IMG/VR virus record: IMGVR_UViG_3300026085_000093
Span: 1-64,000 of that record
Length of the DNA: 64,000 nt
Reading direction: 5' to 3' (one strand)
Origin: a virus
Lineage: Duplodnaviria > Caudoviricetes
Below the pieces are notes generated by a model. The model ran no database searches and was not told the origin of the DNA. It was given only the letters and a program-made list of their open reading frames with translations. The position numbers and the translations under genes are program-made. Each line of letters begins with the position of its first letter. Positions within the stretch are counted from its first letter, which is position 1. Below are positions 5,074-34,327 of the stretch, piece after piece.

Positions 5074-5095
5074 ATAATATGTAAAGGAAATAACA

Positions 5096-18180: not shown

Positions 18181-18436
18181 TAGGCTGTGGATCTACACAG
18201 CATTAGCAGGCTCCGTATTTGGTGCTATATTTGTCGCATATATCAGCACCACACGAATAGGTCTATGGGGTTATGCCCAAGTAGACAGAGCGATAGATTA
18301 TCTTGTAGAACGTTGGGGACTTACATGGCTAGAACAGCCTGAAGACGCTTGGCGTAAAAAGTATCCAAAAATAACTGCGAAAATTGATAGCATTGAAAAA
18401 CGTTTAGCAGATTTGGAGGGCAAAAATGATAAGTGA
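18149..18436 (+). CDS. Small membrane protein, holin candidate
   Basis: N-terminal TM segment, charged C-terminus, located inside the lysis cassette. Confidence 0.4.
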   Translation: MWEMIERMASDRLWIYTALAGSVFGAIFVAYISTTRIGLWGYAQVDRAIDYLVERWGLTWLEQPEDAWRKKYPKITAKIDSIEKRLADLEGKNDK

Positions 18437-20323: not shown

Positions 20324-21154
20324 ATGGACTATTACAGCGTACTAGGTGTAAACAAACACGCCACATCAGACGAATTAAAGAAAGCATACAGAAAACTTGC
20401 AATGGAACACCATCCTGACAAGGGTGGTGATGGCAAAAAGTTTGCCCAAATTAACGAAGCATATGATACGTTGAAAGATCCTGAAAAAAGATCGTTATAT
20501 GACAATCCTGCAACTAATAATAATTTTCAAGGTAATGCATTTACTGATAACTTCGGTAATTTTAACGATATTTTTGGCAGTATGTTTGGACAAGGTTTTG
20601 CACAACAACATCGAGCAGTAAAAAATAAAGATATTAGATTGCGTGTAAGTTTAACACTAGAAGATGTTTTAACAGGTAAAGATTTTCTTGCAACTTATAG
20701 TATGTTAAATGGTGTAGAAACAAGTGCAAGTATTAGAATTGCTCCTGGTGTAATGGATGGTCAATTAATGAGATACAGAGGATTAGGAGATCACTCTGCC
20801 CACAGTCTGCCTAGAGGTGACTTGATTATGCAAATAAGCATTGTAAAACATCCTAGGTTTAGAAGAGATAATGCACACTTACATATTGAAGAAAAGGTAA
20901 ATCTTTTTGATTTTATTACAGGTACAACAAAAAACATTCCAACTCTAGAAGGAGGCATGGTTAGATTGAATATTCCTGCAGGAACAAACCCAGGTACAAT
21001 ATTAAGTGTATCTGGAAAAGGTTTGCCAGAACTTAATACAGGACGTACAGGAAATTTATATGTAAAGTTGAAAGGTATTACACCAAAAATAAAAGATCCA
21101 AATATGCTAGAAAAGGTAAAATTAATAAATGATGCAATTAATCGTAGCGCCTGA
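20324..21154 (+). CDS. dnaJ: J-domain co-chaperone (DnaJ type II/CbpA-like, no zinc finger)
   Basis: DYYSVLGV...HPDKGG J-domain, G/F-rich linker and DnaJ C-terminal domains. Confidence 0.9.
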
Positions 21155-21653
21155 TACAAGACTAGAAAATCCTGTTCCAAAGTTTGACTTGGTTACAGAT
21201 AATCCAAGACCTCTTGCATTTCAAATGATTGAATTAATGCAAAAGGAAGGTGGATTAGGGCTATCAGCAAATCAAGTGGGAATAAATGGGCAGATATTTG
21301 TTATGAAATGTTTGTTAAATAAAAAATACGGCGATACAATCGTTGTGATGAATCCACATATTAAAGGAATAAGTAAAGAATTAGAAGAAGGAATTGAGGG
21401 GTGTTTAAGCCATCCAGGTTTAACACTTAAAGTAAGACGTCCAATTAGTTGTATTGTTGAATTTGATACCTTGACAAATGATTATAAAGATGTTATACAT
21501 ATAGAGACAAAATTTAATGATATTGACAGTAGAATATTTTTACATGAATACGACCATTTACAAGGAATACAATTCATTAATAGGGTTAGTAGACTTAAAC
21601 TTAACATGGGTTTAAAAAAGCAAGCAAAAAGGAACAAAAATGGTAGAACCTAG
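21129..21653 (+). CDS. def: Peptide deformylase
   Basis: [13 protein letters not shown] and HEYDH motifs are intact. Confidence 0.9.
21471..21499 (+). promoter_or_regulatory. Possible sigma70 promoter inside def, upstream of clpA
   Basis: TTGACA-N17-TATACA with an extended -10 TG. Confidence 0.4.
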
Positions 21654-23889
21654 CCAGGCATTACAAGTAGTATTTGACAAGGCAGTTAAAGACGCAAAGA
21701 AATTACAACATGAATATGTTACTCTTGAACATCTTCTGTTTGCAATGCTTTGCGAAGAACAATTTTCTACAGCATTAAAAGGGTTTGATACAGATGTAGA
21801 CCTATTAAAAAAGAATGTAGAAAATTATCTCAAAACAAAACTAAGCGAAATTAAAACAGAAGCAAAAAAATACAAACCTGTAAAAACAGGAACAGTTGAA
21901 CGTGTTTTAAACAGAGCATTTGCACAAGTTTTATTCCAAGGACGCAATCAAATAGAAATTACTGATGTCTTTATTAGTACATTAAGTGAAAAAAGAAGTT
22001 ATGCGTTCTTTGCATGTCAACAAGCAGGTATTCAAAAAGATAAGTTTATTCAATATATGAGTGCAGAACTTGAGTTAGATATTACCGACGAAGATGATAT
22101 GGAAAATGCCGGGATCGCTAATAAAGCGTTAAAGGCGTTCACTGATGATCTTAATGCTGATGTTAAAAAAGGCCGGATCGATCCTGTAATTGGACGAGAA
22201 GATGAAATAGAATCACTAGCACTTGCGTTAGGACGCCGCACAAAATCAAATGTTCTTATGGTAGGCGATCCAGGTGTAGGTAAAACTGCTATTGCAGAAG
22301 GACTTGCATGGAAAATTGTAAACAATGATGTTCCAGATTTCCTAAAAGAATATAATGTTTATGCACTCGATATTGGTAGTATGCTTGCTGGCTCAAAATA
22401 TCGTGGAGACTTTGAAGAACGCTTTAAACTTGTATTATCTGCACTACAGAAAAAAGGTAAAACAATCATGTTTATCGATGAAGCACACATGATTTCAGGT
22501 GCAGGAGCAGGAGGCAGCAATAGTGCAAACGATCTTGCAAACATGCTCAAACCGGCATTATCTAAAGGCAACATTAAAGTTGTTGCTTCAACTACTTGGG
22601 AAGAATATCGTAAGTATTTTGAATCAGATCGTGCTCTAATGAGACGTTTTCAGCGGGTAACTGTAGACGAACCTAGTGCAGAAATTACAAAAGATATTTT
22701 ACATGGTATAAAGAAGTATTATGAAGAGTTCCACACTGTTGAAATTACTGATGAAGCAATCGAAGCAGCAGTAAAACTAACAATAAAATATCAAGCAGAT
22801 AAAAAACTACCTGACAAAGCAATTGATGTAATCGATGTTGCATGTAGTAGATTCAAAGTTAACAATCAAACAGAAAATAAAATTGTTACAGAAGAAAGTA
22901 TTCAATTTGAACTTGCTAAAATGGTTAAAATACCTAAAGAACAAGTTGCAGAACGTGAAACAGAAAACCTTGCTAATTTAGAAAATAATATGAAAGGCAG
23001 TGTTTATGGACAAGACGAAGCAATTGAAGGCATTGTTGATAAAATACTTGTGGCGCAAGCAGGATTAAAGGCAGCAAACAAACCTATTGGCTCGTTTGTG
23101 TTTATGGGTCCAACAGGAACAGGTAAAACGGAAACAGCAAAACAACTTGCACATCATTTAGGTGTACAACTTGTACGTTTTGATATGAGCGAATACCAAG
23201 AAAAGCACAGTGTTGCTAAGTTTATCGGTGCACCTCCAGGCTATGTAGGTTTTGAAGACGATGCCGGCCAACTTATTATCAAATTACAAGAAAATCCAAA
23301 CTGTGTGTTATTGTTAGACGAAATTGAAAAAGCACACCCTGATGTAAGTAATGTTTTATTGCAACTTATGGATAACGGAATGATCACAGGGTCAAACGGT
23401 AAAGAAGCAGATGCTAGAAATTGTATTCTAATTCTTACAACTAACTTAGGTGCTAGAGAATCAGAAAAGAATGCAATCGGTTTTGGTGAAGAAACAGATG
23501 GTTCTGACTACGAAGACGGTGAATTGAAAAAATTCTTTGCTCCAGAGTTTAGAAATAGGCTAGATGGCGTTATTACATTTGCTAAACTTGGTAAGCCTGT
23601 GATGTTAAAAATTGTTGGCAAGTTCTTAAAAGAACTTAAAGATCAAGTTAAGGACAAAAACGTAGAAATTAGTGTCACAGACGAAGCATTAGACTTGTTA
23701 GTAGACAAAGGTTTCGATCGCAAGATGGGTGCAAGACCATTACAGCGTGTTATTGACAAAGATATCAAACGTCCTTTGTCAAGGATGCTATTGTTTGGTG
23801 ATTTAAAAGACGGTGGTAAACTTACAATCAACGCAAAAGGCAAAGACATCGTCCTAAATGTTGAGAGTACTGTAATTGCAACAAGCTGA
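21640..23889 (+). CDS. clpA: ClpA-type Hsp100 unfoldase
   Basis: Clp N-domain, two AAA modules (GDPGVGKT, GPTGTGKT), no ClpB middle domain, IGF ClpP-docking loop. Confidence 0.93.
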   Translation: MVEPSQALQVVFDKAVKDAKKLQHEYVTLEHLLFAMLCEEQFSTALKGFDTDVDLLKKNVENYLKTKLSEIKTEAKKYKPVKTGTVERVLNRAFAQVLFQGRNQIEITDVFISTLSEKRSYAFFACQQAGIQKDKFIQYMSAELELDITDEDDMENAGIANKALKAFTDDLNADVKKGRIDPVIGREDEIESLALALGRRTKSNVLMVGDPGVGKTAIAEGLAWKIVNNDVPDFLKEYNVYALDIGSMLAGSKYRGDFEERFKLVLSALQKKGKTIMFIDEAHMISGAGAGGSNSANDLANMLKPALSKGNIKVVASTTWEEYRKYFESDRALMRRFQRVTVDEPSAEITKDILHGIKKYYEEFHTVEITDEAIEAAVKLTIKYQADKKLPDKAIDVIDVACSRFKVNNQTENKIVTEESIQFELAKMVKIPKEQVAERETENLANLENNMKGSVYGQDEAIEGIVDKILVAQAGLKAANKPIGSFVFMGPTGTGKTETAKQLAHHLGVQLVRFDMSEYQEKHSVAKFIGAPPGYVGFEDDAGQLIIKLQENPNCVLLLDEIEKAHPDVSNVLLQLMDNGMITGSNGKEADARNCILILTTNLGARESEKNAIGFGEETDGSDYEDGELKKFFAPEFRNRLDGVITFAKLGKPVMLKIVGKFLKELKDQVKDKNVEISVTDEALDLLVDKGFDRKMGARPLQRVIDKDIKRPLSRMLLFGDLKDGGKLTINAKGKDIVLNVESTVIATS

Positions 23890-24574
23890 GACTACAAAAC
23901 TACACTATAACAAATATCTATATAAATTAGAAACAAGACTTTATGTAGCACATATCTTGCGTACTGAAATGCAGCATGGAAAAAACTTTCAGTACGCAAG
24001 ACGAGAACTTAATGCTTTTAAAGCAAGAGTTTTTCCTGGAAGTAAAACATTTCAAGTTAATGCTCGATTTGGACAAACACACCTTTCGATTGACACTGAT
24101 GAATTACTTGATGTTGAAAGAGTTATTGCCAATCTTATGCACGAAGAAGACTACACTATCAGAGTAGAACAAAGTTTTTTAAACATTTATTCTAATAATG
24201 AAAGTTTAATTGATAGGTTAGCAAAAACTTTATCAGCAAATTATATAAAGGTTTGGAAACCAAATCCTGATATGATAGAATATTTGCAAAAGAATAAAAA
24301 TGTTATTATTGTAAACAAAGAAGTAGAGTTTGATTACAAAGTTACGTTTGGAGGTAATAGCGTTAATCCCTTAATGGCTAATTGGATTGTAAAAAATCCT
24401 AATTTATGCAAGTGTGGCCCTAAACTATTAGAAAAAATAAAAAACAAAAAATGGATCAAAGGGCAATACGTTTATATTAAGAACGACAAAGCACTTACTT
24501 TGTTTCAACTACTCTCAGGTGGAAATATTTCAAGGATCGATAAACTAATCTACAAACATGATCTAGATAAATAG
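23876..24574 (+). CDS. Hypothetical protein
   Basis: 232-aa ORF overlapping the clpA end. Confidence 0.55.
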   Translation: MQQAETTKLHYNKYLYKLETRLYVAHILRTEMQHGKNFQYARRELNAFKARVFPGSKTFQVNARFGQTHLSIDTDELLDVERVIANLMHEEDYTIRVEQSFLNIYSNNESLIDRLAKTLSANYIKVWKPNPDMIEYLQKNKNVIIVNKEVEFDYKVTFGGNSVNPLMANWIVKNPNLCKCGPKLLEKIKNKKWIKGQYVYIKNDKALTLFQLLSGGNISRIDKLIYKHDLDK

Positions 24575-24601: not shown

Positions 24602-25360
24602 ATGGAACATTTCGTACGAGTAGTCATGGAAAAAACCGACATTGCTGAAAAGTTAGATGAGTCAATTTTTCCAGGCAACGACATTTTTGAATCAGAACAG
24701 GGTGCAACAGTTTTTGAAATTCCTCTATCTAGGGAATTATCAGAAGAAGAAGCAGATGGATATGCAGAGCACCTAGCAAATTATATGTTTGAACAAGGTT
24801 ATGACGACTTTGATATTGAAATATCTGCTAACGAAGAAATTTCAGACATTGAAGAAACATATGACGGCGACGAGTTTTTTGAAAACTACGGTGTCATGTG
24901 GTTCAACGAAGATGAAGATGAAGGTTTAGAAGAAAGATCAGAGTTTGAAAAATATAGAAATATGTATATTGTCTATGATCCAGGAACACTAGAAGTTAAA
25001 AAAAGCTATCCAATAACAAATAAAATGCAAGCACAAAACGATGCAAAAGCAATGGGTATGGTAGCAACTAGTGGAACAAAATATTTAGAATTAAGACGTG
25101 ATAGAAAATCAATGGACGAAGCTGAATATCAAGGACGCAAAGTTAAACTTGGCAAACCTATGCGCGGCGATGTTAAAAAGTTCAAAGTATATGTAAGAGA
25201 TCCAAAGACTAAAAATATTAAGAAAGTTAACTTTGGTGATCCAAACATGAAGATCAAAAAGTCTAACCCAGCACGTAGACGTTCATTCCGTGCTAGACAT
25301 AACTGTGATAATCCAGGACCAAGAACAAAAGCACGTTACTGGAGTTGTAGAAAATGGTAA
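24602..25360 (+). CDS. Modular probable internal head protein: acidic N-terminal part plus basic C-terminal module
   Basis: Late promoter at 24568; junctions LEE|R and MDE|AE precede a Lys/Arg-rich FGDP...ARH.C...YWSC module. Confidence 0.55.
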   Translation: MEHFVRVVMEKTDIAEKLDESIFPGNDIFESEQGATVFEIPLSRELSEEEADGYAEHLANYMFEQGYDDFDIEISANEEISDIEETYDGDEFFENYGVMWFNEDEDEGLEERSEFEKYRNMYIVYDPGTLEVKKSYPITNKMQAQNDAKAMGMVATSGTKYLELRRDRKSMDEAEYQGRKVKLGKPMRGDVKKFKVYVRDPKTKNIKKVNFGDPNMKIKKSNPARRRSFRARHNCDNPGPRTKARYWSCRKW

Positions 25361-25707
25361 AAATCAACGAGTTTCACGATCTTAGCCAAGACATGGATAT
25401 GAAAACTGGAGACAAACTTCCGTTTAACGTTGTTGACGATTTAGTAGTCTATATGAAGAATGATCCTGAATTTTATAGACGCCAATTATATCCAAAAATG
25501 TGTGATGTACAAGAAGTTGTAAAAAAAGGCAAAAAATACGATAAAAAGTCTTTACTTCCTACTGTCGAATGTGCTATAAGAGAATATGTTGATAAATTCA
25601 AAATCAAAAAAATGCCTGAAGAGATGTGTACAAGAGAAGAAAAGATGATGGTAATCGATCAAATACTAAGAGGCGAAATAGAAAACTTCCGCAACGGAGA
25701 GTATTAA
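25354..25707 (+). CDS. Hypothetical protein with a capsid-targeting-like N-terminus
   Basis: Starts MVKINEF. Confidence 0.55.
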   Translation: MVKINEFHDLSQDMDMKTGDKLPFNVVDDLVVYMKNDPEFYRRQLYPKMCDVQEVVKKGKKYDKKSLLPTVECAIREYVDKFKIKKMPEEMCTREEKMMVIDQILRGEIENFRNGEY

Positions 25708-28109
25708 TGTTTGTTCGTGACCTTTTTGAAGCACAGGCAAGACGTATTGTTGCAATTATGCCTGGAGGATTTCATCCGTTTCATCCTGGTCACAAAAGTT
25801 TATATGATTGGGCGACTAAAACATTTGGTAGTGAAAATGTATTTGTCGCTGCAACAGCAGATACCAAAACTAGACCATTCCCTTTCGATGTAAAAAAGAA
25901 ACTTGCTAACATGGCAGGAGTTCCTGCAGAGCGTTTTATACAAGTCAAATCACCTTTTAATTTAAACAGTTATAAAGACATGTTAGGAGACGATGCAGCA
26001 ATAGTATTTGTACGCAGTCTAAAAGACAAGGGCGAACAGCCGTTACCAGATCAAACAAAGAAGAATGGTGAGCCCGGTTATTTAAGATCATACAAAGGTA
26101 AAAATCTTAGAACTAGTGATGAAATGGGATACATGGCATATGGTCCTACTATAGATTTTAATTTTTCAGGTATGCAAATCAAGAGTGCTAGTGAACTTAG
26201 AGCAACATGGCCTGAAATGTCAGACGAAGATAAATTGAAAGCTGCTAAACTTATGTACGGTAATGGTGCCCCTGTTGCTGTTAAATTGTTAAATCAAGCA
26301 CTGGGCGATCCTGAGGCTCCTGTTGGTGAAGCATCATATAACAATCACATAGGACACAATGATCTACTAACTATGCCAAAGAATACTGTTGTTATTGATA
26401 CTCCTGGTGACTTAGACTGGTACAAATTAGGACAACATTTTCCTACATTAAACCGTGCAGATCCTAGAGAATTTGGTCAAGGCGAAAGCGATGCTATAAT
26501 TACATTTGCTAACGATAAAGAAAAAGAAGTATTCCTTAAACTAGCAGCACGTTTAGGTTTAAAAGTCAAGGATATCGGCGGAAGTGCTGAACATCCTGAA
26601 ATACACGGCGAAGAACAACAAGTTAATGAGATTGCACCAGCAGTATTATGGGCAGGTGCAAAAGCAGCAGGTTGGGTTTTAGGATGGGCTGCAAGGAGAG
26701 GCGCAGTTCCTGTAGTCAAATGGGCAATTAGACGGCATGGCGGCAAAATAGCAATAGGCGGCACAGCGGCATATTATGCTAAAAAAGGATGGGACTGGGT
26801 TGAAAGTATACTTGGTCCTGAAATGGTTAAATTCCTTGTTGCAAACAAGTTTAGTATTATGATGGCAGTAATATTGATCTTAGGAGGTGTTGCCCTACAA
26901 AAATTCTTTACGAAAAAAGGTGACGAACTTGTTCAAAAGATGGCCGACGAATCAATTGACATATCTGAAGATGCTTCTCCGGATGAAGAATATGAATTCC
27001 ACAGAAAACTAGACAAGTTAGTTCACAAGTATTTTGGTCATAGTTCAGACGAAAAACCAAAAAAGACAAAACCCAAAAAAAAAATTATTGAAGGTTACAA
27101 ACTACAACTAGAGCGTGATCCTAATATGTATGTATTACATATTACTGATACTGCTACAGGTAAACGTACAGAAGTACGTGGCAAACCAGATTATGAAACT
27201 ACTGGTTACGATGCAAATGATAAACTGCATCAACTGTTAGACAAGATTGGCAAAAGTGCAAACATTGCAGAACTAATCAACGGCGAAGTTGTAACTATCA
27301 ATCCTAAACATCCTGATGCTACCAAAGCAAAAGCAGCAACAGATTTAGCATATAATGAAAGTACAGACTTAGATAGTCTTAGAAAGTTTGTAAGGTCTCA
27401 ACGAGAAGCACCTGATCAAGTTCTTTATCAAATGATGATGGCACCAGATACTTATGGACACGCAGCATCAAACTTTGTAAGAAGTTGGTATGAGAAAACA
27501 AAAGAAGAAAATGGCTTAAATGATGTAGATTCAGCGTTAGAAATAATGGTTGATGAACTTGGAATGAAAAACGAAGGCGCAGAAATCACTATGTGGACTA
27601 ATCCTGAGTACCAAGGTGCAGATGTTGACGACAAATATTATAAAAAACAACCAGTAAAAATAGTAAACGTATCTAAACTTACACCGTTTGAACCTGCAGA
27701 CAAAATGGATCCTAAAGACAATCACGACAATATGATGAAGTTTGTTGACAAGATTAAAGCAGGTGAGAAGATTAAACCTATCGTAATCTTACGACACAAA
27801 GGTAAGTGGCTTATTGTTGATGGACATCACAGATACTTTGCACACCTAAAAGCAGGTGTAGATAAAATCCGTGCAGTTGTTGCTGATCCAAAAAATGTAA
27901 CTTGGCGTGATGATGTTCCAGAGAGTGTAAAAGAAAACTTTGCTGACGGTAAAGTAAAAGGCAAAAGCAGACCAGGGCGTGTAAAACGTGCAGGCGCTAG
28001 TTGCAATGGTAGTGTTACAGCATTACGTAAGCGAGCAAAAAATAGTTCGGGTGAGAAAGCGAGGATGTATCATTGGTGCGCAAACATGAAGGGCGGGAAG
28101 AAAAAGTAG
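25707..28109 (+). CDS. 800-aa mosaic polyprotein: HxGH nucleotidyltransferase-like, hydrophobic and ParB/Srx-like modules
   Basis: Starts MFVRDLFE; contains GGFHPFHPGH, SASELR and IVDGHHR; seven internal xxE| junctions. Confidence 0.7.
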   Translation: MFVRDLFEAQARRIVAIMPGGFHPFHPGHKSLYDWATKTFGSENVFVAATADTKTRPFPFDVKKKLANMAGVPAERFIQVKSPFNLNSYKDMLGDDAAIVFVRSLKDKGEQPLPDQTKKNGEPGYLRSYKGKNLRTSDEMGYMAYGPTIDFNFSGMQIKSASELRATWPEMSDEDKLKAAKLMYGNGAPVAVKLLNQALGDPEAPVGEASYNNHIGHNDLLTMPKNTVVIDTPGDLDWYKLGQHFPTLNRADPREFGQGESDAIITFANDKEKEVFLKLAARLGLKVKDIGGSAEHPEIHGEEQQVNEIAPAVLWAGAKAAGWVLGWAARRGAVPVVKWAIRRHGGKIAIGGTAAYYAKKGWDWVESILGPEMVKFLVANKFSIMMAVILILGGVALQKFFTKKGDELVQKMADESIDISEDASPDEEYEFHRKLDKLVHKYFGHSSDEKPKKTKPKKKIIEGYKLQLERDPNMYVLHITDTATGKRTEVRGKPDYETTGYDANDKLHQLLDKIGKSANIAELINGEVVTINPKHPDATKAKAATDLAYNESTDLDSLRKFVRSQREAPDQVLYQMMMAPDTYGHAASNFVRSWYEKTKEENGLNDVDSALEIMVDELGMKNEGAEITMWTNPEYQGADVDDKYYKKQPVKIVNVSKLTPFEPADKMDPKDNHDNMMKFVDKIKAGEKIKPIVILRHKGKWLIVDGHHRYFAHLKAGVDKIRAVVADPKNVTWRDDVPESVKENFADGKVKGKSRPGRVKRAGASCNGSVTALRKRAKNSSGEKARMYHWCANMKGGKKK

Positions 28110-28297
28110 TAGATCTATATCCAGATGGGTATAGTATAACGTGGAGAGAACACGAAGATATGAGCATTGACGACATAGAATGGTCACATTATGTTGCTAA
28201 GTTAAAAGAGCACGAAGCAAATAAAACAAGCACAAACGACAGAAACAAATATTGGAATGAATATAGAAGATCTAAAGAAGTTGGCGGGGATAAATGA
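28073..28297 (+). CDS. Possible small hypothetical protein
   Basis: Fills the gap but overlaps both neighbours. Confidence 0.3.
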   Translation: MVRKHEGREEKVVDLYPDGYSITWREHEDMSIDDIEWSHYVAKLKEHEANKTSTNDRNKYWNEYRRSKEVGGDK

Positions 28298-28469
28298 ATT
28301 CAAAGGATATACTGAATATACTCCTGAGAACATGAGTGCTGCCGCTGCTGAAAAAAGAAAGATTGAAAAGAAAAAAGGCATTAAGCCTGGCGACCCAGAT
28401 TGGTTTAAACTATGGTTTAGTTTACCTTATATGACAGGTCCTGTGCAATTTAGAGGGAGAAAGAAATGA
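28257..28469 (+). CDS. Small probable internal head protein
   Basis: MNIEDLKKLAGINE| leader followed by a basic module. Confidence 0.6.
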   Translation: MNIEDLKKLAGINEFKGYTEYTPENMSAAAAEKRKIEKKKGIKPGDPDWFKLWFSLPYMTGPVQFRGRKK

Positions 28470-28576
28470 ATGGCGAAAAAAGAACTTGCAAAAATTGTGG
28501 GCATAGATGCCATTGTTATCGACCTGATTGTAAAGACTGTGTAAATGATGTTTGTACGAAGTGTAATTGTAAATGA
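28466..28576 (+). CDS. 36-aa metallothionein-like protein (not in the ORF track)
   Basis: MNGEKRTCKNCGHRCHCYRPDCKDCVNDVCTKCNCK has 9 Cys and 2 His; GGAG RBS; ATGA overlaps at both ends. Confidence 0.7.
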   Translation: MNGEKRTCKNCGHRCHCYRPDCKDCVNDVCTKCNCK

Positions 28577-29406
28577 AACTATTTGAATTTTTAAAAGAAG
28601 ATGGACGTATTGTAAAAGGAGTTAACACTACTCCTGATGTAGCAGTAGACGAAATACCAAAGCAAGCAGCAAAATTTGGTAATAAAGTAGATGTTGGCGG
28701 ACGTCCACCTACACTATCAACTAAAGTAAAAGGTAAATCTACTAACGTACTTTTTAATTTAGGACTAGCAGAAAAAACCTATAGTGCATATGAACTTGCA
28801 CTGATGGAGGGCGGGCATAGCCTACCGGAAGAACATTCATGGCCAAAAGGACACGGAAGTGAAATCGCATGGCTGGCATATAACCACAACCTAGTGGAAG
28901 AACTAGAAAACATAGGTCCTAATACTGAAATTTACGTAGACATGGACGGTGTACTTGCTGACTTTTTTGGCGATTGGGCTAAATTAATGAACAAAAAACA
29001 CTGGACTGATATCGAAGATCCTGCTAATGCAATTAACAAAATTAAAACAGTAGATGATTTTTGGTTAAATTTACCTCTTACAAAAAATGCAAAGCCTTTG
29101 CTTATGTTAATCAAGCGTGTCAAAGGCAGTTATAATATCTTAAGCAGTCCACTTGCTGATGATCCTAAAAGTATTCCGCATAAAAAGGAATGGATCAAGA
29201 AAAATTTGTCATTTTTTCCACCCAGAAGAATATTTTTAACACACGACAAAGCACAGTATGCTACAAACTCAGACGGTTCTGCAAATATTCTAATTGACGA
29301 CTATGGTGTAAACATTAACAAATGGTCCGAAGCAGGAGGTATAGGCTTCAAACACAAAGATCATAAGTTTGAAAGAACTGTGAAGAACTTAAAAGGTTTA
29401 AGATAA
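28573..29406 (+). CDS. Modular protein: targeting leader plus HAD 5'-nucleotidase (NT5C-like) domain
   Basis: Starts MKLFEFLKE; contains YVDMDGVLADF and LIDDY. Confidence 0.7.
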   Translation: MKLFEFLKEDGRIVKGVNTTPDVAVDEIPKQAAKFGNKVDVGGRPPTLSTKVKGKSTNVLFNLGLAEKTYSAYELALMEGGHSLPEEHSWPKGHGSEIAWLAYNHNLVEELENIGPNTEIYVDMDGVLADFFGDWAKLMNKKHWTDIEDPANAINKIKTVDDFWLNLPLTKNAKPLLMLIKRVKGSYNILSSPLADDPKSIPHKKEWIKKNLSFFPPRRIFLTHDKAQYATNSDGSANILIDDYGVNINKWSEAGGIGFKHKDHKFERTVKNLKGLR

Positions 29407-29413
29407 ATACATT

Positions 29414-29602
29414 ATGCTAATAAGAGAAGTCAAAAAGAGTCAATTTTCTGTTTGGATAGCAAATGTCCGAGTGCGTCAGCGTACCTACACACAATGGATA
29501 CCTGTCCAAGTTAGCGCAAGAAATAACAGAGAAGCACGTAACATCATTTATGCACAATATGGCAAAAACGCAGGCATTACAGACCTAAGGAGAGCCAAAT
29601 GA
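29414..29602 (+). CDS. Small basic protein, probably leaderless
   Basis: Starts MLIREV; TAAATA-N4-ATG. Confidence 0.6.
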   Translation: MLIREVKKSQFSVWIANVRVRQRTYTQWIPVQVSARNNREARNIIYAQYGKNAGITDLRRAK

Positions 29603-29868
29603 AAATGCAAGACATTTTAGAAGCAGTGAAGCAAAGAGATCCTAGCAGTAAAATTATGCAGGATATTCGCAAGAGTGGTGCAGCAGGTGCTCACAAAGAC
29701 AAAAAGAAAGTACTACCTCGCAAAGAAAAGCACAAAGGCAAAGCATACGAAGAATATAAACATGCTGATCATGCTAAAGGCAAAGATCCAATGCCTAAAA
29801 AATCTAAGCCAGGTAAAGGTCCTGAGACTAAACATCCTCTAAGAGGAAAATTAGTAGGAGGGACTTGA
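29599..29868 (+). CDS. Lys-rich probable internal head protein
   Basis: MKMQDILE| leader; very basic. Confidence 0.6.
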   Translation: MKMQDILEAVKQRDPSSKIMQDIRKSGAAGAHKDKKKVLPRKEKHKGKAYEEYKHADHAKGKDPMPKKSKPGKGPETKHPLRGKLVGGT

Positions 29869-29893
29869 CAATGAAGATAAAAGATGTTATAAT
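29865..29893 (+). promoter_or_regulatory. Perfect-consensus sigma70 promoter embedded in a gene start
   Basis: TTGACA-N17-TATAAT with an extended -10 TG. Confidence 0.55.
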
Positions 29894-30053
29894 AAATGAA
29901 GTTGCAACAGGAATGGGAACATCTAGTGTATCAACAGTAATAAATCCAACTGTCGCAAAATCTAAAAGAAAACCCAAAAAACAAAAGCCAACTGATAATG
30001 CATTAGATATGAAAGGTGTATCTTTATTTGGCGGATCACTGCTGAAACGATAA
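29871..30053 (+). CDS. Small probable internal head protein
   Basis: MKIKDVIINE| leader. Confidence 0.6.
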   Translation: MKIKDVIINEVATGMGTSSVSTVINPTVAKSKRKPKKQKPTDNALDMKGVSLFGGSLLKR

Positions 30054-30083
30054 ATACTACAACAAGAGAAAACGGAGCCACCG

Positions 30084-31007
30084 ATGCCTACAATGAATAA
30101 AGCAGCAAAAAACAAAGCACAGATGCAGTTCGCTCAAATGACAAAGACACTGCTTCCAATGATTCGCAGACGTATTCAAAACGTCAAAAACGCACCTATG
30201 AATGATGTTGATTTTAATCAACTAGACCATATGGGATCACTAATTGCTAATCAACAAGTAACAACCGCAAGAGAGTTGCTAGATGCAATGAGTGAATATA
30301 CAACAATGCGTGATCAAGGTGAGTTTACTGTAGATCGTTTTAAAGAATTAGTTGCTCTCGCCAAAGGTGGTACTAGCGAAGGCATGATTGAAGCACACGC
30401 AAAAGCAACTTGCGGCTGCGATGCAAGTAGTTGCTCACACTGTGGCGGCAAGCATACATTAGACGAAGTAGGCAAAACTTGTGATTGCTGCGAAAACAAA
30501 ATTAAAAAAGTGGAAACAACAAACGAAGGTCTTGCAGACATGGCAGGCGTTGCAGAACGTGATCACGAAGTGCAAATGGCTCGTGCTGAACTATATAAGA
30601 TCGCAAAATATGCTATCAAACTACACGAAATGCTAAAAGGTGTAAGTGAAGCAGAAGGCATCGAAGGTTGGATGCAAAGCAAAATCACAAAAGCAGCAGA
30701 CTACATGGGCTCAGTATATCATACACTAGATTATGATATGATGGGAGAGTCAAAGAAAACATTCAAAGGCAATATGGACGAAGCAGCAAAAGCTGATTAT
30801 AAAACCACACTTGCCGAAAAAATGAAAGAACAGACTTGTAACGAATGCAGTAAAACAATGCTTACTGCTCAAGAGAAAAAGGAACTTGCAAATTTGCCAG
30901 AAGGCAAACGCCACGGTAATAGTAAAATTTATCAAAAATGCTGGAAAGGCTGCCGTAAAGTAGCAGGTGTTCCACGTGGTCAACCTGGTTCATGCAAGTG
31001 TGATTAA
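30084..31007 (+). CDS. Modular polyprotein-like protein with Cys-rich modules
   Basis: Junctions MIE|A, TNE|G, MGE|S, MDE|A and LPE|G; CGC..CxHC and CWxGC modules; late promoter at 30051. Confidence 0.6.
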   Translation: MPTMNKAAKNKAQMQFAQMTKTLLPMIRRRIQNVKNAPMNDVDFNQLDHMGSLIANQQVTTARELLDAMSEYTTMRDQGEFTVDRFKELVALAKGGTSEGMIEAHAKATCGCDASSCSHCGGKHTLDEVGKTCDCCENKIKKVETTNEGLADMAGVAERDHEVQMARAELYKIAKYAIKLHEMLKGVSEAEGIEGWMQSKITKAADYMGSVYHTLDYDMMGESKKTFKGNMDEAAKADYKTTLAEKMKEQTCNECSKTMLTAQEKKELANLPEGKRHGNSKIYQKCWKGCRKVAGVPRGQPGSCKCD

Positions 31008-31009
31008 TA

Positions 31010-31195
31010 ATGCGTATTCACGAAGTCACTGAACGTAAAATGACTGGGGCTGAAAAGTCCAAGGAAACTAAACTTAAGAAAAAGTATGACGACAGTGATA
31101 TGAAAAAGAATATGAAAAAACAGTATGGTAAAGATTGGGAAAATGTTTACTATGCTACTATCCGTAAAAAGTCAATGACCAAAGGCGCAAAGTAA
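31010..31195 (+). CDS. Small basic probable internal head protein
   Basis: MRIHEVTE| leader. Confidence 0.6.
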   Translation: MRIHEVTERKMTGAEKSKETKLKKKYDDSDMKKNMKKQYGKDWENVYYATIRKKSMTKGAK

Positions 31196-31199
31196 TGTT

Positions 31200-31700
31200 A
31201 TGTTTGAACAACATATACAAAACTGGATAGAAACTTTCCTTAGTATACCTTCCGAAACATTTAATAACTTACCTCCTTGTCCGTTTGCCAAACAAGCAAT
31301 GCTAGAAGACAAGATAAAGTGTGTAGAATTAAAAGACATCTATAAAATAAGCATGAGTTCTTATTTTATAGCAGAACTTGAAAATTTTTCTTATCATTGG
31401 CCTAAAAATACAGAAGTTGTAATACTAGGGTGTGATCCGTCTTTGATTACATCTGAAGAATTATCACGTGCTGTAGGACATTCAAATGATCAATTTTTAC
31501 ATAACAGAGGCTTTATTGCACTGGAAGATCATCCAGATGAAGAAGAACTAGTAGATAACACTATACTCAACAACGGTAAATACGCTGTAAGTTTCTTGCA
31601 GCAAAAAGATAAACTTGAACTTGCAAGAAAGGCTTTACGTAAACAAAACTATTACGTAAAATGGGATCAAGATTATTATAACGAAGTTGTGGGTGAATGA
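31200..31700 (+). CDS. Hypothetical protein (DUF1415-like CPFA motif)
   Basis: N-terminal PPCPFAK. Confidence 0.45.
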   Translation: MFEQHIQNWIETFLSIPSETFNNLPPCPFAKQAMLEDKIKCVELKDIYKISMSSYFIAELENFSYHWPKNTEVVILGCDPSLITSEELSRAVGHSNDQFLHNRGFIALEDHPDEEELVDNTILNNGKYAVSFLQQKDKLELARKALRKQNYYVKWDQDYYNEVVGE

Positions 31701-32131
31701 CAAGTAGAATTGATTTACAAAATACAAAATATAAAACAATTGATTTTAAACTGCTAAACAGTTCACACTTTGAAGAATGTGAACAAATTTACAAACAATA
31801 TTTAATTTATAAAAAATTTGATACAATTTATCCTATATTTAAAGAAGATTGGGATAGAAATACAGTTTTTGGTTATTATGACAATAATGAACTAGCAGCA
31901 TGGAGTTGCTACATGGTTTATCCGAGTAAGAGTACAGCACATGCTGATCAATTTGCATGGAACTATAAATCACCTAAACTAAAATTAGGATACAGATCAT
32001 TGCGTAGTGAATGTGCTTATTTTCGAGATCAAGGATTTCGTTATTTAATACTAGGAGATTTGTATTCTTACAAACAAGAACTACAAGGCTTTGAACATAT
32101 TACTTTAGATAGTCATTTAGCGTTTTCATAA
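31697..32131 (+). CDS. GNAT-fold protein resembling the C-terminal domain of Ate1/Bpt aminoacyl-tRNA-protein transferases
   Basis: LGYRSL..E......GFRYLILG resembles LGTYxIL.EI....G..YLYLG. Confidence 0.5.
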   Translation: MTSRIDLQNTKYKTIDFKLLNSSHFEECEQIYKQYLIYKKFDTIYPIFKEDWDRNTVFGYYDNNELAAWSCYMVYPSKSTAHADQFAWNYKSPKLKLGYRSLRSECAYFRDQGFRYLILGDLYSYKQELQGFEHITLDSHLAFS

Positions 32132-32157: not shown

Positions 32158-33279
32158 ATGAAGTATAATGCATGGAATTATAACGATCTAAATGCTTTTC
32201 ACGTAGAATTAAGTACACGATGCAATGCAGCGTGTCCAGGCTGTCCAAGATTCTTACGTAATAGCACTAATGTCGATCCGGAAGTTGTGCAAACGGATAT
32301 TACAATTGATTTGTTTAAAAGATGGTTTCCATTAGATCTTGTACAAAAATCTAAAAGTTGGATATTTTGCGGAACACATGGAGATCCATTGGCCTGTAAT
32401 GATATATATGATATATTAGATTACATATGTTCTAACAGTATAGCAACTATACAAATTAACACCAATGGAGGCTTGCGCACTCCGGATCATTTCCGTGCAA
32501 TAGGAGAATTGTTTTTAGAAACAACAAATGGTTTAAACCCAAAACCAATGCGTAAAATTACATTTAGTATAGACGGCTTAGAAGATACTAACCATATATA
32601 CAGAAGAAATGTTATTTGGGATAAAGCATGGAATAACATGATTGCATATGCATTTACAGGTGCGCACACTGATTGGGACTTTTTACAATTCAAACACAAC
32701 AAACATCAGGTAGAACTTAGCAGAAAAATTGCACAAGAAAATGGTATTAATTTTGTATTAAAAAATCCATTCGGTGTCGACGGCACAGGTATGCCAGCAT
32801 ATGACAAAGACTACAACTTAGAATATGTCCTAGAACATGCTACAGACAACGGACATGATCATTACACTCCTGCTCCATTAGGTTGGGAAGCAGATATGCC
32901 AGCGCCAGTAACAGAAGAAGGTGTAATTGCTTGTAACAGTTTTAGAACTTTGCCATATCCATACCATGAAGAACCAATGGTCGAACTATATATAGATGCA
33001 TTAGGAAGAGTTCATCCTTGTTGCTTTGTAGGAAATAAAATGCAAGGCCCTAGATATGTTCCTGAAGCAAGAGAAATGCAAACACTACAAAAAACACTAG
33101 GCGATGCAAATAATTTACATCATCATAGACTTGATCAGATTATAGACGGAGGCGTACTTGCAGTTTATTCAGAAAGTTGGCAATCAAAATCAATCAGTCA
33201 ATGCTGGGTCCAATGCGGAAAGTCCTGTGGAAAAGTCAGAGAAATTGACAAACTCTTCGAACTCTCCGAAGAAATGTAA
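32158..33279 (+). CDS. Radical SAM protein with a SPASM/twitch domain
   Basis: CNAACPGC and C-terminal VHPCC...C..QC. Confidence 0.85.
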   Translation: MKYNAWNYNDLNAFHVELSTRCNAACPGCPRFLRNSTNVDPEVVQTDITIDLFKRWFPLDLVQKSKSWIFCGTHGDPLACNDIYDILDYICSNSIATIQINTNGGLRTPDHFRAIGELFLETTNGLNPKPMRKITFSIDGLEDTNHIYRRNVIWDKAWNNMIAYAFTGAHTDWDFLQFKHNKHQVELSRKIAQENGINFVLKNPFGVDGTGMPAYDKDYNLEYVLEHATDNGHDHYTPAPLGWEADMPAPVTEEGVIACNSFRTLPYPYHEEPMVELYIDALGRVHPCCFVGNKMQGPRYVPEAREMQTLQKTLGDANNLHHHRLDQIIDGGVLAVYSESWQSKSISQCWVQCGKSCGKVREIDKLFELSEEM

Positions 33280-34327
33280 ATGGCTAGATAATCACATCAG
33301 TATGGATACTTTGGGTAACTTACGGCCTTGCTGTAATTGGGATGACCGTGACAGAAACGATCTTGTAAAAGTTTCAGATATCAAAAAATACAAAGACAGT
33401 GACTTTTTAGCAAGTGTTAGGAAAGATCTTGATAATGGAATATTTCCCGAAGGATGTAGAGATTGTGAGGAAGAAGAATCTTATGGCTTTGAAAGTTTAC
33501 GATTGCAAAGCGATAGAAAATATAAGAACAATCGCAAAGACGCTGAGATAAAATTTGGAAACAAATGTAATCTTTCGTGTTCAATGTGTGGTCCTGTTAA
33601 CAGTAGTTTAATAGATACAGAACTAAGAAAATTAGATTCGCAAGATATACAACACAAACTGATACAAAGACAAAAATATTCATTTGATTTATGGTATGAA
33701 GACGAAAAAAATATACAAAAACTTGCCGAATTTTTACATGATAGAGATGAAATACGTTTCACAGGTGGAGAACCAACTGTAAATAATTATCTTCAAAAAT
33801 TTTGCGAATATTTGTTAGTATATGATAGTAAACCTAGTTTGCGTATTACTACAAATGGAAATAACTTACCTACGAAATTACTTTCAATCTTAGAAAAATT
33901 TGACGTTGAATGGCATTTTAGCATTGACGGTTATAAAGAAGTAAACGAATATATAAGGTATCCTAGCAATTGGGATAAAATTATAAAAAACATAGCAAAA
34001 GCACAACAAATCGGTACAAGTGATGTTTGTACAACTGTAAGTTGGTTGAATGTAAAACACATGGAACCATTAGGCGAATGGATCATGTCAAATAATTTTG
34101 AACGATGGGAAGTTTATCCTGTAAACAGTCCTAAAGAATTTGCACCTTGTCATGCACCTGATAATCATAAACAGATTTATGTAGATTTGTGTGCCACATA
34201 TACAGATCTTAAAAGAAGCTTGCCGGCAGTAATCCGAGAACGGAACATTGATTATTTTGATCAAGGTATGAGTTATCAAAAACATTTAGATAGATTGAGA
34301 GGAACATCTATTGAAACGGTATTTTGA
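33158..34327 (+). CDS. Radical SAM protein with an N-terminal Fe-S (twitch-like) segment
   Basis: RPCC...CRDC, CNLSCSMC and GGEP; true start probably downstream of 33158. Confidence 0.8.
   Translation: MQFIQKVGNQNQSVNAGSNAESPVEKSEKLTNSSNSPKKCKWLDNHISMDTLGNLRPCCNWDDRDRNDLVKVSDIKKYKDSDFLASVRKDLDNGIFPEGCRDCEEEESYGFESLRLQSDRKYKNNRKDAEIKFGNKCNLSCSMCGPVNSSLIDTELRKLDSQDIQHKLIQRQKYSFDLWYEDEKNIQKLAEFLHDRDEIRFTGGEPTVNNYLQKFCEYLLVYDSKPSLRITTNGNNLPTKLLSILEKFDVEWHFSIDGYKEVNEYIRYPSNWDKIIKNIAKAQQIGTSDVCTTVSWLNVKHMEPLGEWIMSNNFERWEVYPVNSPKEFAPCHAPDNHKQIYVDLCATYTDLKRSLPAVIRERNIDYFDQGMSYQKHLDRLRGTSIETVF

Follow-up and report, generated by a model that had tools for sequence, protein, structure and literature searches.

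A phage gene island of leader-bearing proteins built from modules that meet at putative prohead-protease sites

The genome of a marine jumbo myovirus (236-kb record IMGVR_UViG_3300026085_000093; T4-like, kin of PA5oct and Rak2-type phages) carries, at 24602-31195 of the window analysed here (its first 64,000 nucleotides), an island of ten ORFs that we regard, on balance, as a hypervariable set of T4-type internal head protein genes turned into cleavable mosaics, the products of which would be packaged, cut and partly injected. The phage head would thus probably act as a loader of shuffled protein cargo. The first-pass annotation of the window had proposed such a modular cargo system; its interpretation is partly supported here, with packaging, cleavage and injection as putative steps, and the comparative data back its underlying observation more strongly than a single sequence could. 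If this reading is true, the syntax of cleavage sites would account for the extensive shuffling of modules.

Leaders and promoters of the island

The ORFs and N termini reported in the first-pass annotation were confirmed. All ten ORFs, and the modules within them, lie on the + strand. Eight of the ten start with an 8–14-residue leader ending in [LIV]-x-Glu (a slash marks the predicted cut): the 117-aa ORF (25354-25707; short leader MVKINE/F, its start overlapping the stop of the 252-aa ORF), the 800-aa ORF (25707-28109, counted from ATG; MFVRDLFE), the 70-aa ORF (28257-28469; a second leader type, MNIEDLKKLAGINE/F), the 277-aa ORF (28573-29406; MKLFEFLKE), the 62-aa ORF (29414-29602; MLIRE/V), the 89-aa ORF (29599-29868; MKMQDILE/A), the 60-aa ORF (29871-30053; MKIKDVIINE/V) and the 61-aa ORF (31010-31195; MRIHEVTE/R). 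The N terminus of the 252-aa ORF (24602-25360), MEHFVRVVME, is an atypical leader, and the Cys-rich 307-aa ORF (30084-31007) has none. At least eight consecutive leader-bearing late ORFs had been claimed; eight of ten bear leaders, but they are not consecutive, the 307-aa ORF interrupting the run.

With a simple gene call over the complete 236-kb record as reference, 8 of 10 island ORFs have [LIV]xE among their first 11 residues versus 26 of 235 others (Fisher p=2e-6), and 7 of 10 versus 10 of 235 have a M-x-x-x-[ED]-hydrophobic start (p=2e-7), p-values that are indicative only, the motif having been set after inspection of the data. Across 391 distinct homologue N termini, the leader consensus is M-[RK]-[ILF]-[KRF]-[ED]-[LIF]-x-E; homologues of the 117-aa ORF start with MKINEIF, MRIDEF or MKIEDL and those of the 62-aa ORF with MLLRELQ, MFIRETF or MRLRETF. 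The 70-aa ORF family is kept in relatives, and LAG[LIVM] occurs 155 times in related ORFs versus 30 expected, its N-terminal copies being followed by x-E in 64 of 70 cases. For comparison, T4 IPII and IPIII begin with MKTYQEFIAE/A and T4 gp24 with MAKINELLRE. In the T4 leader, targeting depends on residues 4 and 7 and processing on residues 8 and 10, and cleavage by gp21 follows L/I-x-E (PMC9026906).

Late-promoter-like motifs of the T4 type are found on the + strand 28 nt 5′ of the first island gene ((G)ATAAATA, 24567..24573), 4 nt 5′ of the ATG of the 62-aa ORF (ATAAATA, 29403..29409) and 27 nt 5′ of the 307-aa ORF (ATAAATA, 30050..30056). The window holds 11 copies of ATAAATA against 31 ± 5 expected, an approximately threefold depletion, and 24 of the 33 copies in the 236-kb record lie at most 60 nt upstream of gene starts, including those of tail and baseplate genes. 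The distal island genes may be made early too, as suggested by a perfect sigma-70 promoter at 29865-29893.

Modules of the 800-aa precursor

The large ORFs had been described as strings of unrelated modules, and in relatives these modules are indeed permuted (E-B-F-G-H, G-F-H, G-NT5C-H), deleted or found alone behind a bare leader. The seven junctions of the 800-aa ORF fall after residues 208, 308, 421, 462, 551, 623 and 743, and the ends of BLAST alignments with ORFs of 157 related contigs cluster at 208, 303-309, 406-424, 455-462, 549-553, 621-626 and 741-743. The ORF contains nine [LIV]xE sites in all, and two of the seven junctions (AYNE, KNE) have no Leu, Ile or Val at P3; because alignment ends pile up at all seven, the junctions are true module boundaries and not a chance pick of [LIV]xE sites. 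Whether breakpoints of gain, loss and permutation in homologues coincide with the Glu junctions had been set as a test beforehand, and in the 157 contigs they coincide at every one. AlphaFold2 gives pLDDT <50 for the stretches around five of the seven junctions, and the E/F junction (551) falls within a predicted helix.

The leader (25707..25730) occurs in relatives as 23 distinct variants, MLLRELFE and MFIRDLYE among them, directly before module A (residues 9-208; 25731..26330). Module A has an HxGH nucleotidyltransferase fold according to Pfam (CTP_transf_like, E=5e-4, narrowly missing the cut-off) and AlphaFold2 (pLDDT 80-95); its closest solved folds, NadD and PPAT, are weak matches (E=2e-3), and alignments stop at 208 in 16 homologues. 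Acidic module B (residues 209-308; 26331..26630), flanked by linkers of pLDDT <50 (203-221 and 292-319), follows module E in two related loci (L008, L010), where it is preceded by ..AYNE/ or ..LGLNE/. Module C (residues 309-421; 26631..26969), modelled as all-helical and including one hydrophobic helix of transmembrane-like character, occurs by itself in locus L054, behind a leader of its own (MKIQEITEQRVDE/LAPI..). Module D (residues 422-462; 26970..27092), a short spacer, acidic then basic, sits directly behind module A in relatives without B and C (..APVGE/DASPDEE).

Module E (residues 463-551; 27093..27359), a small beta/alpha domain starting GYKLQLER (pLDDT about 90), has Glu at P1 in 10 of 10 distinct upstream contexts, one of them the bare leader MKINEITMRE/, and Glu directly precedes helical module F (residues 552-623; 27360..27575; starting STDLDSLR) in 8 of 8. 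Modules F and G are inverted in locus L025. Module G (residues 624-743; 27576..27935) has a ParB/Srx fold with a DGHHR motif, as judged from Pfam (ParB_N, E=1e-3), PHROG (ParB-like) and Foldseek (sulfiredoxin 6ky4, E=2e-5, TM 0.70, and ParB/Noc). It is missing exactly between ..GMNE/ and /NFADG in a near-identical relative (L004), and contigs from three RNA libraries carry a joint, 27568>27933, that drops 121 codons in frame and with them module G. Module H (residues 744-800; 27936..28109), a basic two-Cys tail starting NFADGK (pI 11.2, +15), is also found as a stand-alone ORF of 66-68 aa (MRVLEIVE/NFADGK).

Adaptor, payload and small basic products

In the 277-aa precursor, the leader (28573..28599), comparable to that of T4 IPII/IPIII, is followed by a 58-aa adaptor, module R (residues 10-67; 28600..28773; DGRIVKGVNTT...NVLFNLGLAE/), with a Glu site on both sides. 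About 45 leader variants precede R in relatives, and mean column identity is 75% across 21 diverse copies. A profile of R retrieved 767 clusters from 1.84 billion representative proteins; in the best 150 of the 767, R mostly begins between residues 9 and 12 and has unrelated sequence behind it, and the partners of leader and adaptor include NT5C, GH19 + LysM, Cu/Zn-SOD, poly(A)-polymerase head, HD and other domains. R has no match in Pfam, PDB or Atlas, and among cultured phages no island module was found except in a 65-aa adaptor-only protein of Sinorhizobium phage Phosso. The 277-aa ORF contains an NT5C-type HAD 5′(3′)-deoxyribonucleotidase domain (28918..29376; Pfam NT5C, E=2e-8; phrog_2643, E=5e-22) whose fusion partners in relatives are modules G and H or other modules.

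The remaining ORFs are built from similarly mobile parts. The 252-aa ORF, found in 126 related loci, consists of a conserved N terminus, an acidic middle (net -29) and, after ..DEAE/YQGR, a basic 87-aa C-domain (pI 10.9) that matches phrog_7595 and is a stand-alone protein of 79-90 aa, starting MAKYQGR, in pelagiphages Kolga and HTVC026P. The 307-aa ORF comprises two modules joined at ..TTNE147/GLADMAGVAE, and its C-terminal half stands alone in more than 10 relatives behind MRDKEIRE/, MKEKDLKE/ or MRQKDLKE/. Parts of the 89-aa ORF (phrog_1359) reappear as C-terminal modules of longer ORFs, the 60-aa ORF as the C-terminal module of ORFs of 193-307 aa and the 61-aa ORF as an internal or C-terminal module. 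The small mature products of the island have pI values of 10-11.6, the mature parts of the 62-, 89-, 60- and 61-aa ORFs being at 11.6, 10.2 (+15), 10.8 and 10.0, respectively; that of the 70-aa ORF is basic too (pI 9.9).

A varied payload had been proposed earlier, of which the HxGH nucleotidyltransferase, ParB/Srx and NT5C nucleotidase folds are assignable and the other modules are not; a role as anti-defence or host-takeover effectors is conjecture. The products might instead serve, after prohead targeting and trimming, as core, scaffold or DNA-condensing parts, with enzyme domains that are passengers or active only in the producing cell, which we consider unlikely, though worth weighing. 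Six products are, like T4 internal proteins, small and very basic, and could equally be DNA-condensing internal proteins; the LAG[LIVM] motif of the 70-aa ORF leader type recurs at the C-terminal end of the scaffold protein, making LAG[LIV] common to leaders and scaffold; and adaptor R is far better conserved than any sequence behind it. Moreover, it is not obvious why a deoxynucleotidase or an adenylyltransferase should need packaging, which counts against the cargo reading. However, what lies downstream turns over fast and consists of unrelated enzymes and a transmembrane module, such hypervariability is typical of conflict genes and not of structural ones, and GH19 + LysM and Cu/Zn-SOD make sense only outside the capsid.

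Processing sites and the head protease

Upstream of module H, 45 non-redundant and mutually unrelated contexts all have Glu at P1, and 31 of them (69%) have Leu, Ile, Val or Met at P3 against a background of 0.23 (p=1e-10), whereas P2 and P4-P6 are at background in these 45 contexts. Judged by residue frequencies, this pattern is the T4 gp21 L/I-x-E signature. Of the local alignments in an unbiased all-against-all comparison, 21% begin and 25% end on Glu (background 7.5%). The Glu before each module could be the module's own first residue, in which case only the P3 signal would lie clearly outside the modules.

A gp21-family prohead protease is encoded in the same genome (ORF 165185-165808, genome position; Pfam Peptidase_S77, E=9e-26; phrog_207, E=4e-58), and an alignment with T4 gp21 matches the His and Ser motifs of the two. 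The earlier assignment of the leaders to the T4 capsid-targeting type is supported as well, and they end in the gp21-type L/I-x-E. The capsid protein has KYLSE41/S aligned at the T4 gp23 cleavage site FLTE65/A, and that of PA5oct has RFLVE/N at the equivalent position; we counted this shared P3/P1 rule at the capsid maturation site in favour of conserved protease specificity. ESI-MS/MS annotation places three PA5oct proteins in the virion, namely gp150 (starting MKINDIITE/G, its gene adjoining portal), gp202 (a homologue of a protein of the present phage starting MKQFKEYLTE/A) and gp203 (N terminus MFNINDILRLAGV), which is family-level evidence, as they are not direct homologues of island ORFs.

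These observations bear on a second explanation, in our view distinctly improbable, in which the leaders and x-x-E junctions reflect a linker or recombination convention of ordinary cytoplasmic multidomain proteins and no proteolysis takes place, the N-terminal motif being a translation-initiation or folding feature and the junctions leader remnants of gene fusions. If a leader-bearing gene became fused to one lying upstream, a ..h-x-E remnant would stay behind; well-translated genes generally show Lys or Arg at position 2; and [LIVM]xE is not depleted within modules (48 observed versus 32 expected), with no site avoidance seen. Yet internal junctions retain only P3 and P1 of the leader, not its acidic P4 and basic P5, as one would expect of a selected protease site but not of an inherited remnant; the capsid maturation site follows the same P3/P1 rule; and leader-bearing PA5oct relatives are virion proteins.

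Gene neighbourhood

DnaJ and peptide deformylase genes lie just upstream of the island region, and clpA precedes the island in 107 related loci and a 201-aa ORF in 86. This setting would fit an N-terminal degradation or unfolding tag for the phage ClpA encoded directly upstream, limiting protein lifetime, but such a tag leaves the conserved inter-module Glu sites and the same motif on head-module proteins unexplained, and Pfam yields nothing at E<=0.01 for a candidate Bpt-like ORF (31697-32131), so we give this explanation very little weight. Hardly credible is that the small ORFs are precursor peptides, with conserved leader and variable core, for the two radical-SAM genes downstream (32158-34327; many others lie elsewhere in the genome), as the leaders have just 8 residues and also head the 277-aa and 800-aa enzymes, two other ORFs intervene, and the cores are Lys-rich without the Cys/Ser/Thr patterns usual for such peptides.

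Proposed route of the cargo

We suggest that the cleavable-mosaic island works as follows. Its genes would be transcribed late, as the promoter motifs indicate, and the 8–14-residue leader would dock each precursor onto the scaffolding core of the assembling prohead, on the model of the T4 capsid targeting sequence; in many relatives adaptor R lies directly behind this leader. The gp21-family serine protease would then cut after the Glu of [LIVM]-x-E at the leader end and at every junction, and site signature and module syntax suggest that this would free the targeting parts and separate the modules. Because each module begins right after a cleavage site, modules could be added, removed or reordered without harm to their neighbours. 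More conjecturally, the small, very basic products may remain with the packaged DNA, and the enzyme and membrane modules may exit with it at the next infection.

Comparison with known systems

Polymorphic toxins, such as MuF-fused phage toxins, join a conserved N-terminal trafficking part to a variable C-terminal payload, and the leader and adaptor, fused to hundreds of unrelated C-terminal parts, may be likened to this arrangement; unlike MuF-fused phage toxins, the island system has no MuF or recognised toxin domain.

In the jumbo phages phiKZ, 201phi2-1 and SPN3US, cleavage behind the Glu of a three-residue motif affects many head proteins, sometimes at several sites in one protein; propeptides have a targeting role, and a transmembrane helix is present in one ejection protein (PMC5694885, PMC9026906). 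Their inner-body and ejection proteins resemble the island in Glu-site processing, multiple sites and targeting propeptides, but their sites are S/A/G-x-E or A-x-E and their propeptides span about 100-130 residues, and the island differs in both. They are a different lineage with which we found no homology, and combinatorial module shuffling at cleavage sites is not described for them in PMC5694885 or PMC9026906.

[quoted passage not shown] These are strings of several effector domains, frequently with a ParB-like one, for which head packaging, delivery together with DNA and processing into units were proposed (Iyer et al. 2017, PMC5512222). For these, cutting by a zincin-like peptidase domain of the same polypeptide was proposed (PMC5512222); a Pfam search found no such domain in island proteins, which differ in carrying a prohead protease site at the junctions and an N-terminal leader.

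Closest are T4 IPI, IPII, IPIII and Alt, which share with the island a short N-terminal leader of one pattern ending in L/I-x-E and a gp21-family protease encoded in the genome, and the T4 internal proteins are likewise small basic products. T-even internal-protein genes are highly diverse, the leader alone being conserved, according to the accounts in PMC3012670 (citing Repoila 1994) and PMC9026906, and similarity between T4 internal proteins and the island is limited to the leader. Unlike T4, the island has ten genes, up to eight modules per precursor with the same site between them, a 58-aa adaptor behind the leader in many precursors, and several enzyme classes.

Modular architecture of the island proteins

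The island at 24602-31195 comprises ten ORFs (252, 117, 800, 70, 277, 62, 89, 60, 307 and 61 aa in order) that are tightly packed on one strand, with stop and start codons overlapping in several. The first-pass annotation had read these products as packaged polyproteins cut after Glu by the prohead protease, had named seven Glu junctions in the 800-aa protein (208, 308, 421, 462, 551, 623 and 743) and had called for their comparison with breakpoints in relatives. Two IMG/VR scans with the 800-aa and 277-aa proteins yielded 157 loci, and to locate breakpoints every ORF in them was compared by BLAST with the ten island proteins. Along the 800-aa protein, end points of alignments piled up at 208, 303-309, 406-424, 455-462, 549-553, 621-626 and 741-743, clusters that match all seven junctions; breakpoints in the relatives thus fall where the annotation had placed them, and the proposed syntax of modules and junctions is confirmed at the level of sequence comparison. 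Two half-length alignments of the 800-aa ORF were used, a single MAFFT alignment of the 64 shuffled segments having run to 1510 columns and proved unusable.

The eight modules of the 800-aa protein (A to H) recur among relatives in other orders and combinations, including E-B-F-G-H and G-F-H. The nucleotidyltransferase module (A) occurs alone in some relatives, module C alone in one behind MKIQEITEQRVDE/ (a slash marks the presumed cut), module E directly behind MKINEITMRE/, and module H, which begins NFADGK, as a free-standing 66-68 aa ORF starting MRVLEIVE/NFADGK; the NT5C deoxynucleotidase domain of the 277-aa ORF is also found fused to ParB and H modules. One relative with a 98%-identical NT5C protein lacks the ParB module precisely between ..GMNE/ and /NFADG, and the in-frame deletion of 121 codons that removes this module is also seen as a joint, 27568>27933, in contigs of three metatranscriptome libraries. 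Two further population variants are present in RNA-library contigs. One (27350-27952) joins a stretch ending in NFADGK back to the start of module F; in the other (30395-30525), 102 different letters take the place of 129 nt in the Cys-rich portion of the 307-aa ORF. Relatives also use NFADGK with K-N-E after it as a short linker ahead of other modules.

The 307-aa ORF has no leader and consists of two modules joined at ..TTNE/GLADMAGV; in many relatives the second forms an ORF of its own, led by MRDKEIRE/ or MKEKDLKE/. In the 252-aa ORF a basic C-domain starts after ..DEAE/, a domain that pelagiphages Kolga and HTVC026P encode as a separate protein (MAKYQGR...). A tBLASTn search with module H against 50,697 cultured phage records gave no match, and among the same records no relative of the island region was found at the DNA level, except for a short domain common to pelagiphages. 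Each module is single-copy in the genome of this phage.

Genomic setting

The window is the first 64 kb of a 236,366-bp IMG/VR record (estimated completeness 66%), which encodes a T4-type family-B DNA polymerase and clamp loader. The phage is present at estuary and salt-marsh sites. A T4-like head module outside the window contains, in order, the portal, an 83-aa ORF, a very acidic 309-aa ORF, the protease, a scaffold-like protein and a Gp23-family capsid protein, the last 65-71% identical to those of the cultured jumbo phages Sinorhizobium phage Phosso, Vibrio phage 2.275.O, Pseudomonas phage PA5oct and the GAP32/CBB/BF group. On one side the island is bordered by the conserved clpA, 201-aa and 252-aa ORFs, and on the other by conserved ORFs of 166 and 144 aa. 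Its length between these flanks ranges from 4.7 to 7.9 kb across 27 related contigs, a variability that marks it as a hyperplastic region.

DnaJ, peptide deformylase, ClpA and the 201-aa ORF form a block at 20324-24574, immediately 5′ of the island, whose position is kept in approximately 100 related contigs; it is conceivable that the phage ClpA handles cargo precursors. We rejected the readings of the leaders as ClpA degrons and of the small ORFs as RiPP precursors, because neither accounts for the internal junctions. A Bpt/Ate1-like transferase reading of the 144-aa ORF (31697-32131) found no Pfam match at E<=0.01, and the preceding 166-aa ORF was likewise without one. Outside the island, a class-3 lipase ORF (18426-19175; Pfam Lipase_3, E=6e-20) starts with the weakly leader-like MISEMNFKE.

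Leaders and the prohead protease

N-terminal leaders claimed in the first-pass annotation are present on eight of the ten island ORFs. The motif [LIV]xE was found within the first 11 residues of these 8/10 ORFs, compared with 26/235 of the other ORFs of the genome (p=2e-6), and 391 homologue N-termini gave the consensus M-[RK]-[ILF]-[KRF]-[ED]-[LIF]-x-E. The leaders are 8-14 residues long (approximately 67 counting the adaptor described below) and end in [LIV]-x-Glu, as in T4-type propeptides of about 10-20 residues ending L/I-x-E. For the 800-aa ORF we chose the ATG at 25707 over an upstream GTG, because every homologue starts M-[LF]-[LVI]-R-[EDQ]-L-[FY]-E. A degenerate DNA pattern for leaders, meant for scanning cultured relatives, matched merely 1-3 of the leaders of the phage's own genome and was dropped.

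The few carriers of the motif elsewhere in the genome include the 83-aa ORF adjoining the portal (MILRELYY), a 172-aa ORF (MKVFEIISE/N) and a 181-aa ORF (MKQFKEYLTE/A), all three preceded by the late-promoter motif; the last is nearly superimposable on the T4 IPII/IPIII leader MKTYQEFIAE/A. The PA5oct homologue of the 181-aa ORF, gp202, is annotated as a virion protein by ESI-MS/MS, as are PA5oct gp150 (MKINDIITE/G) and gp203, annotations that come from a relative of this phage and concern presence in the virion.

The genome of our phage encodes a prohead protease of the gp21 family, a 207-aa ORF at genome positions 165185-165808 (Pfam Peptidase_S77 PF03420, E=9e-26, above cut-off; phrog_207, E=4e-58) in which the His and Ser motifs of T4 gp21 are conserved. 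T4 gp21 cuts after Glu within the short motif L/I-x-E, and in T4 an Asp in place of this Glu prevents processing while leaving targeting intact (PMC9026906). In the capsid protein of our phage, KYLSE41/SATSG aligns opposite the T4 gp23 maturation site FLTE65/AEIGG, and the PA5oct capsid protein has RFLVE/NASAG at the matching position; from this alignment of capsid-protein sites, the site rule appears to be conserved in the lineage. We consider it probable that the S77 protease cuts the leaders and that these serve as capsid-targeting propeptides.

Signature of the internal junctions

The Glu ahead of a module could be either the end of a cleavage site or simply the first residue of the module. 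To separate the two, we compiled 45 non-redundant contexts upstream of module H, any two of which share <5 of 11 upstream residues. The residue before the presumed cut (P1) was Glu in 45/45 contexts, and P3, two residues further upstream, was Leu, Ile, Val or Met in 31/45 (69%) against a background of 0.23 (binomial p=1e-10), with P2, P4, P5 and P6 at background (8-12 of 45). P3 falls within upstream sequences that are unrelated to one another, which excludes it as a conserved element of module H. Nor are the junctions simply leftover leaders, because the acidic P4 and basic P5 of leaders are lost there. In an unbiased all-against-all comparison of 527 ORFs, high-identity local alignments with unrelated flanks began with Glu in 21% of cases and ended with it in 25% (background, 7.5%).

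In two AlphaFold2 half-models, junctions 208, 308, 462, 623 and 743 lie in stretches with pLDDT <50, junction 421 in a coil between helices and junction 551 within a helix. Avoidance of [LIVM]xE inside modules was looked for as a mark of protease pressure, but there was none (48 observed versus 32 expected), and the motif is slightly enriched in other parts of the genome as well. On balance, we lean slightly towards the view that the internal junctions are also cut by the protease.

A conserved adaptor behind the leader

Behind its leader, the 277-aa ORF has a module of 58 aa (DGRIVKGVNTT...NVLFNLGLAE/), then a linker and finally the NT5C domain. This module, here termed the adaptor, retains 75% mean identity across diverse copies, far above the conservation of the sequence downstream. 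In a search of 1.84 billion representative proteins, its profile detected 767 clusters at E<=1e-3, of which 437 reached E<=1e-10. For most of the best 150 of the 767 clusters, the adaptor begins at residue 9-12 and is preceded by M-[KR]-x-[RKY]-[ED]-[LI]-x-E; among these 150 it ends in N-L-G-[LM]-x-E, beyond which the sequences are unrelated, and the proteins that carry it range from 70 to 1136 residues. Pfam domains in 107 adaptor proteins included NT5C (31), GH19 (8, with LysM in 3), DUF5661 (8), Cu/Zn-SOD (4) and the poly(A)-polymerase head (3), as well as cytidylyltransferase-like, HD, pterin dehydratase and sigma-70 region 4 domains. Searches for relatives of the adaptor itself found no Pfam or PHROG family, PDB sequence match or named Atlas cluster.

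The sole cultured carrier of the adaptor is Sinorhizobium phage Phosso, in a 65-aa protein that begins MRYAEILKLLE/DGKVVKGVNTT. This ORF, at 5001-5195 of the Phosso locus L161 (PV764938.1 439799-439993), is leader and adaptor alone and follows a run of tail-fibre-like genes in the 469-kb phage. By analogy with the long propeptides of phiKZ-like phages (PMC5694885), we infer that the adaptor may be an extended targeting propeptide with a similar role.

A second targeting-like motif

The 70-aa ORF carries a different N terminus, MNIEDLKKLAGINE/F. The motif h-x-x-LAG-[LIV] also forms the extreme C terminus of three head-associated proteins encoded outside the window (whole-record coordinates, G000:C1): the scaffold-like protein (..DMKRLAGLN; 165821-166909), a 368-aa glycine-zipper protein (208013-209119) and a 468-aa virion protein (210773-212179). 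The PA5oct scaffold homologue likewise ends in the motif (..LRRLAGIK), and PA5oct virion protein gp203 starts with it. LAG[LIVM] occurred 155 times in related loci against 30 expected, and x-E directly followed it in 64/70 N-terminal copies, which gives [LIV]-x-E again. The C-terminal LAG tail may be conserved as a means of docking to the capsid shell or portal.

Payload

Three folds could be assigned. The HxGH nucleotidyltransferase module has NadD and PPAT as its nearest, weak matches. Module G has a ParB N-terminal fold with the DGxHR nucleotide-binding motif (IVDGHHRY) and matched sulfiredoxin and ParB/Noc in Foldseek (E=2e-5 to 1e-3), with a Pfam score below cut-off. The 277-aa ORF contains an NT5C domain of the HAD fold, with the DxDxV/T motif as DMDGVLADF and a PF06941 match of 34.9 bits (cut-off, 24.8). 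Modules B, C, E, F and H received no fold assignment in Foldseek searches with two half-models, which were dominated by the ParB and nucleotidyltransferase domains; in the AlphaFold2 model, module C contains a transmembrane-like helix. Six small products are strongly basic (pI 10-11.6), a property that would suit internal proteins associated with DNA. We regard a role of the products as injected effectors as possible, albeit rather doubtful.

Expression

ATAAATA is the core of the T4 late promoter. The window contains 11 copies, spanning 1176-63256, against 31 +/- 5 expected, a threefold depletion; 10/11 lie on the coding strand, and almost all are close upstream of a gene. In the whole record, 24/33 copies lie no more than 60 nt ahead of a gene start, among them the starts of tail tube, baseplate and fibre genes, and the island has three, before the 252-aa, 62-aa and 307-aa ORFs. 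The distance from ATAAATA to the ATG is bimodal, either 4-5 nt or 19-28 nt; the short spacing, seen among others at the tail tube gene, the 62-aa ORF at 29414 and a radical-SAM gene at 32158, would give leaderless or nearly leaderless late mRNAs.

A sigma-70 consensus at 29865-29893 (12/12 match: TTGACA, 17 nt, TG-n-TATAAT with extended -10; approximately 0.003 expected by chance in the stretch) overlaps the beginning of the 60-aa ORF and is oriented towards the 307-aa ORF, so the distal island genes may, judging from this promoter-like sequence, also be expressed early. Contigs of four metatranscriptome libraries from separate studies cover most of the island; they allow for DNA carry-over, and transcript starts are not readable from contigs.

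Discussion

We propose, tentatively and as a reading we place a little short of evenly balanced, that the head of this group of marine jumbo phages serves as a programmable delivery compartment. A universal 8-residue leader and the 58-residue adaptor would load hundreds of different mosaic precursors into the head, where one prohead protease would both release them and cut them into single modules. The cleavage site would then be the joining rule of a polymorphic-effector system, in which recombination could reshuffle the repertoire freely because modules are framed by cleavage sites.

The T4 capsid-targeting principle has so far been established in T4, and analogous targeting propeptides have been inferred for phiKZ-like phages. 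If our proposal is true, the principle extends to uncultured marine jumbo phages, and a sequence rule (leader, optional adaptor and [LIVM]-x-E before each module) would predict packaged proteins and their cut sites. It would also bring into view a large set of unannotated proteins that are candidates for injection (for the adaptor by itself, 767 clusters at 50% identity, most without a known domain), and foreign proteins to be loaded into large capsids would have a natural tag in the leader-adaptor pair. In the literature, no paper was found on the motifs GRIVKGVN, NFADGK or MLLRELFE, and LFNLGL led to an unrelated epitope paper alone.

Among known systems, the inner-body and ejection proteins of phiKZ-like phages have S/A/G-x-E sites and propeptides of approximately 100-130 residues (PMC5694885), whereas in the island P3 is Leu, Ile, Val or Met in 69% of module H contexts and the leaders are 8-14 residues long. 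Polyvalent proteins (Iyer et al. 2017) combine, in one phage-encoded polypeptide, 2-15 unrelated domains, including conflict-type ones such as ParB, as does the 800-aa ORF with its eight modules and ParB/Srx fold. These multi-effector proteins are proposed to rely on a built-in zincin-like MPTase peptidase (PMC5512222); no peptidase family was detected at E<=0.1 in the ten island proteins.

The closest system is that of the T4 internal proteins, which are diverse and have just a capsid targeting sequence in common (PMC3012670, PMC9026906), and the island has its sequence-level hallmarks. Comparison of the mature parts with T4 IPI, IPII, IPIII and Alt through Pfam and the PHROG internal-protein families found no homology, leaving the leader pattern alone in common. 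Unlike in T4, an island precursor holds up to eight modules, a presumed protease site serves as a universal joint between them, and a conserved adaptor follows the leader.
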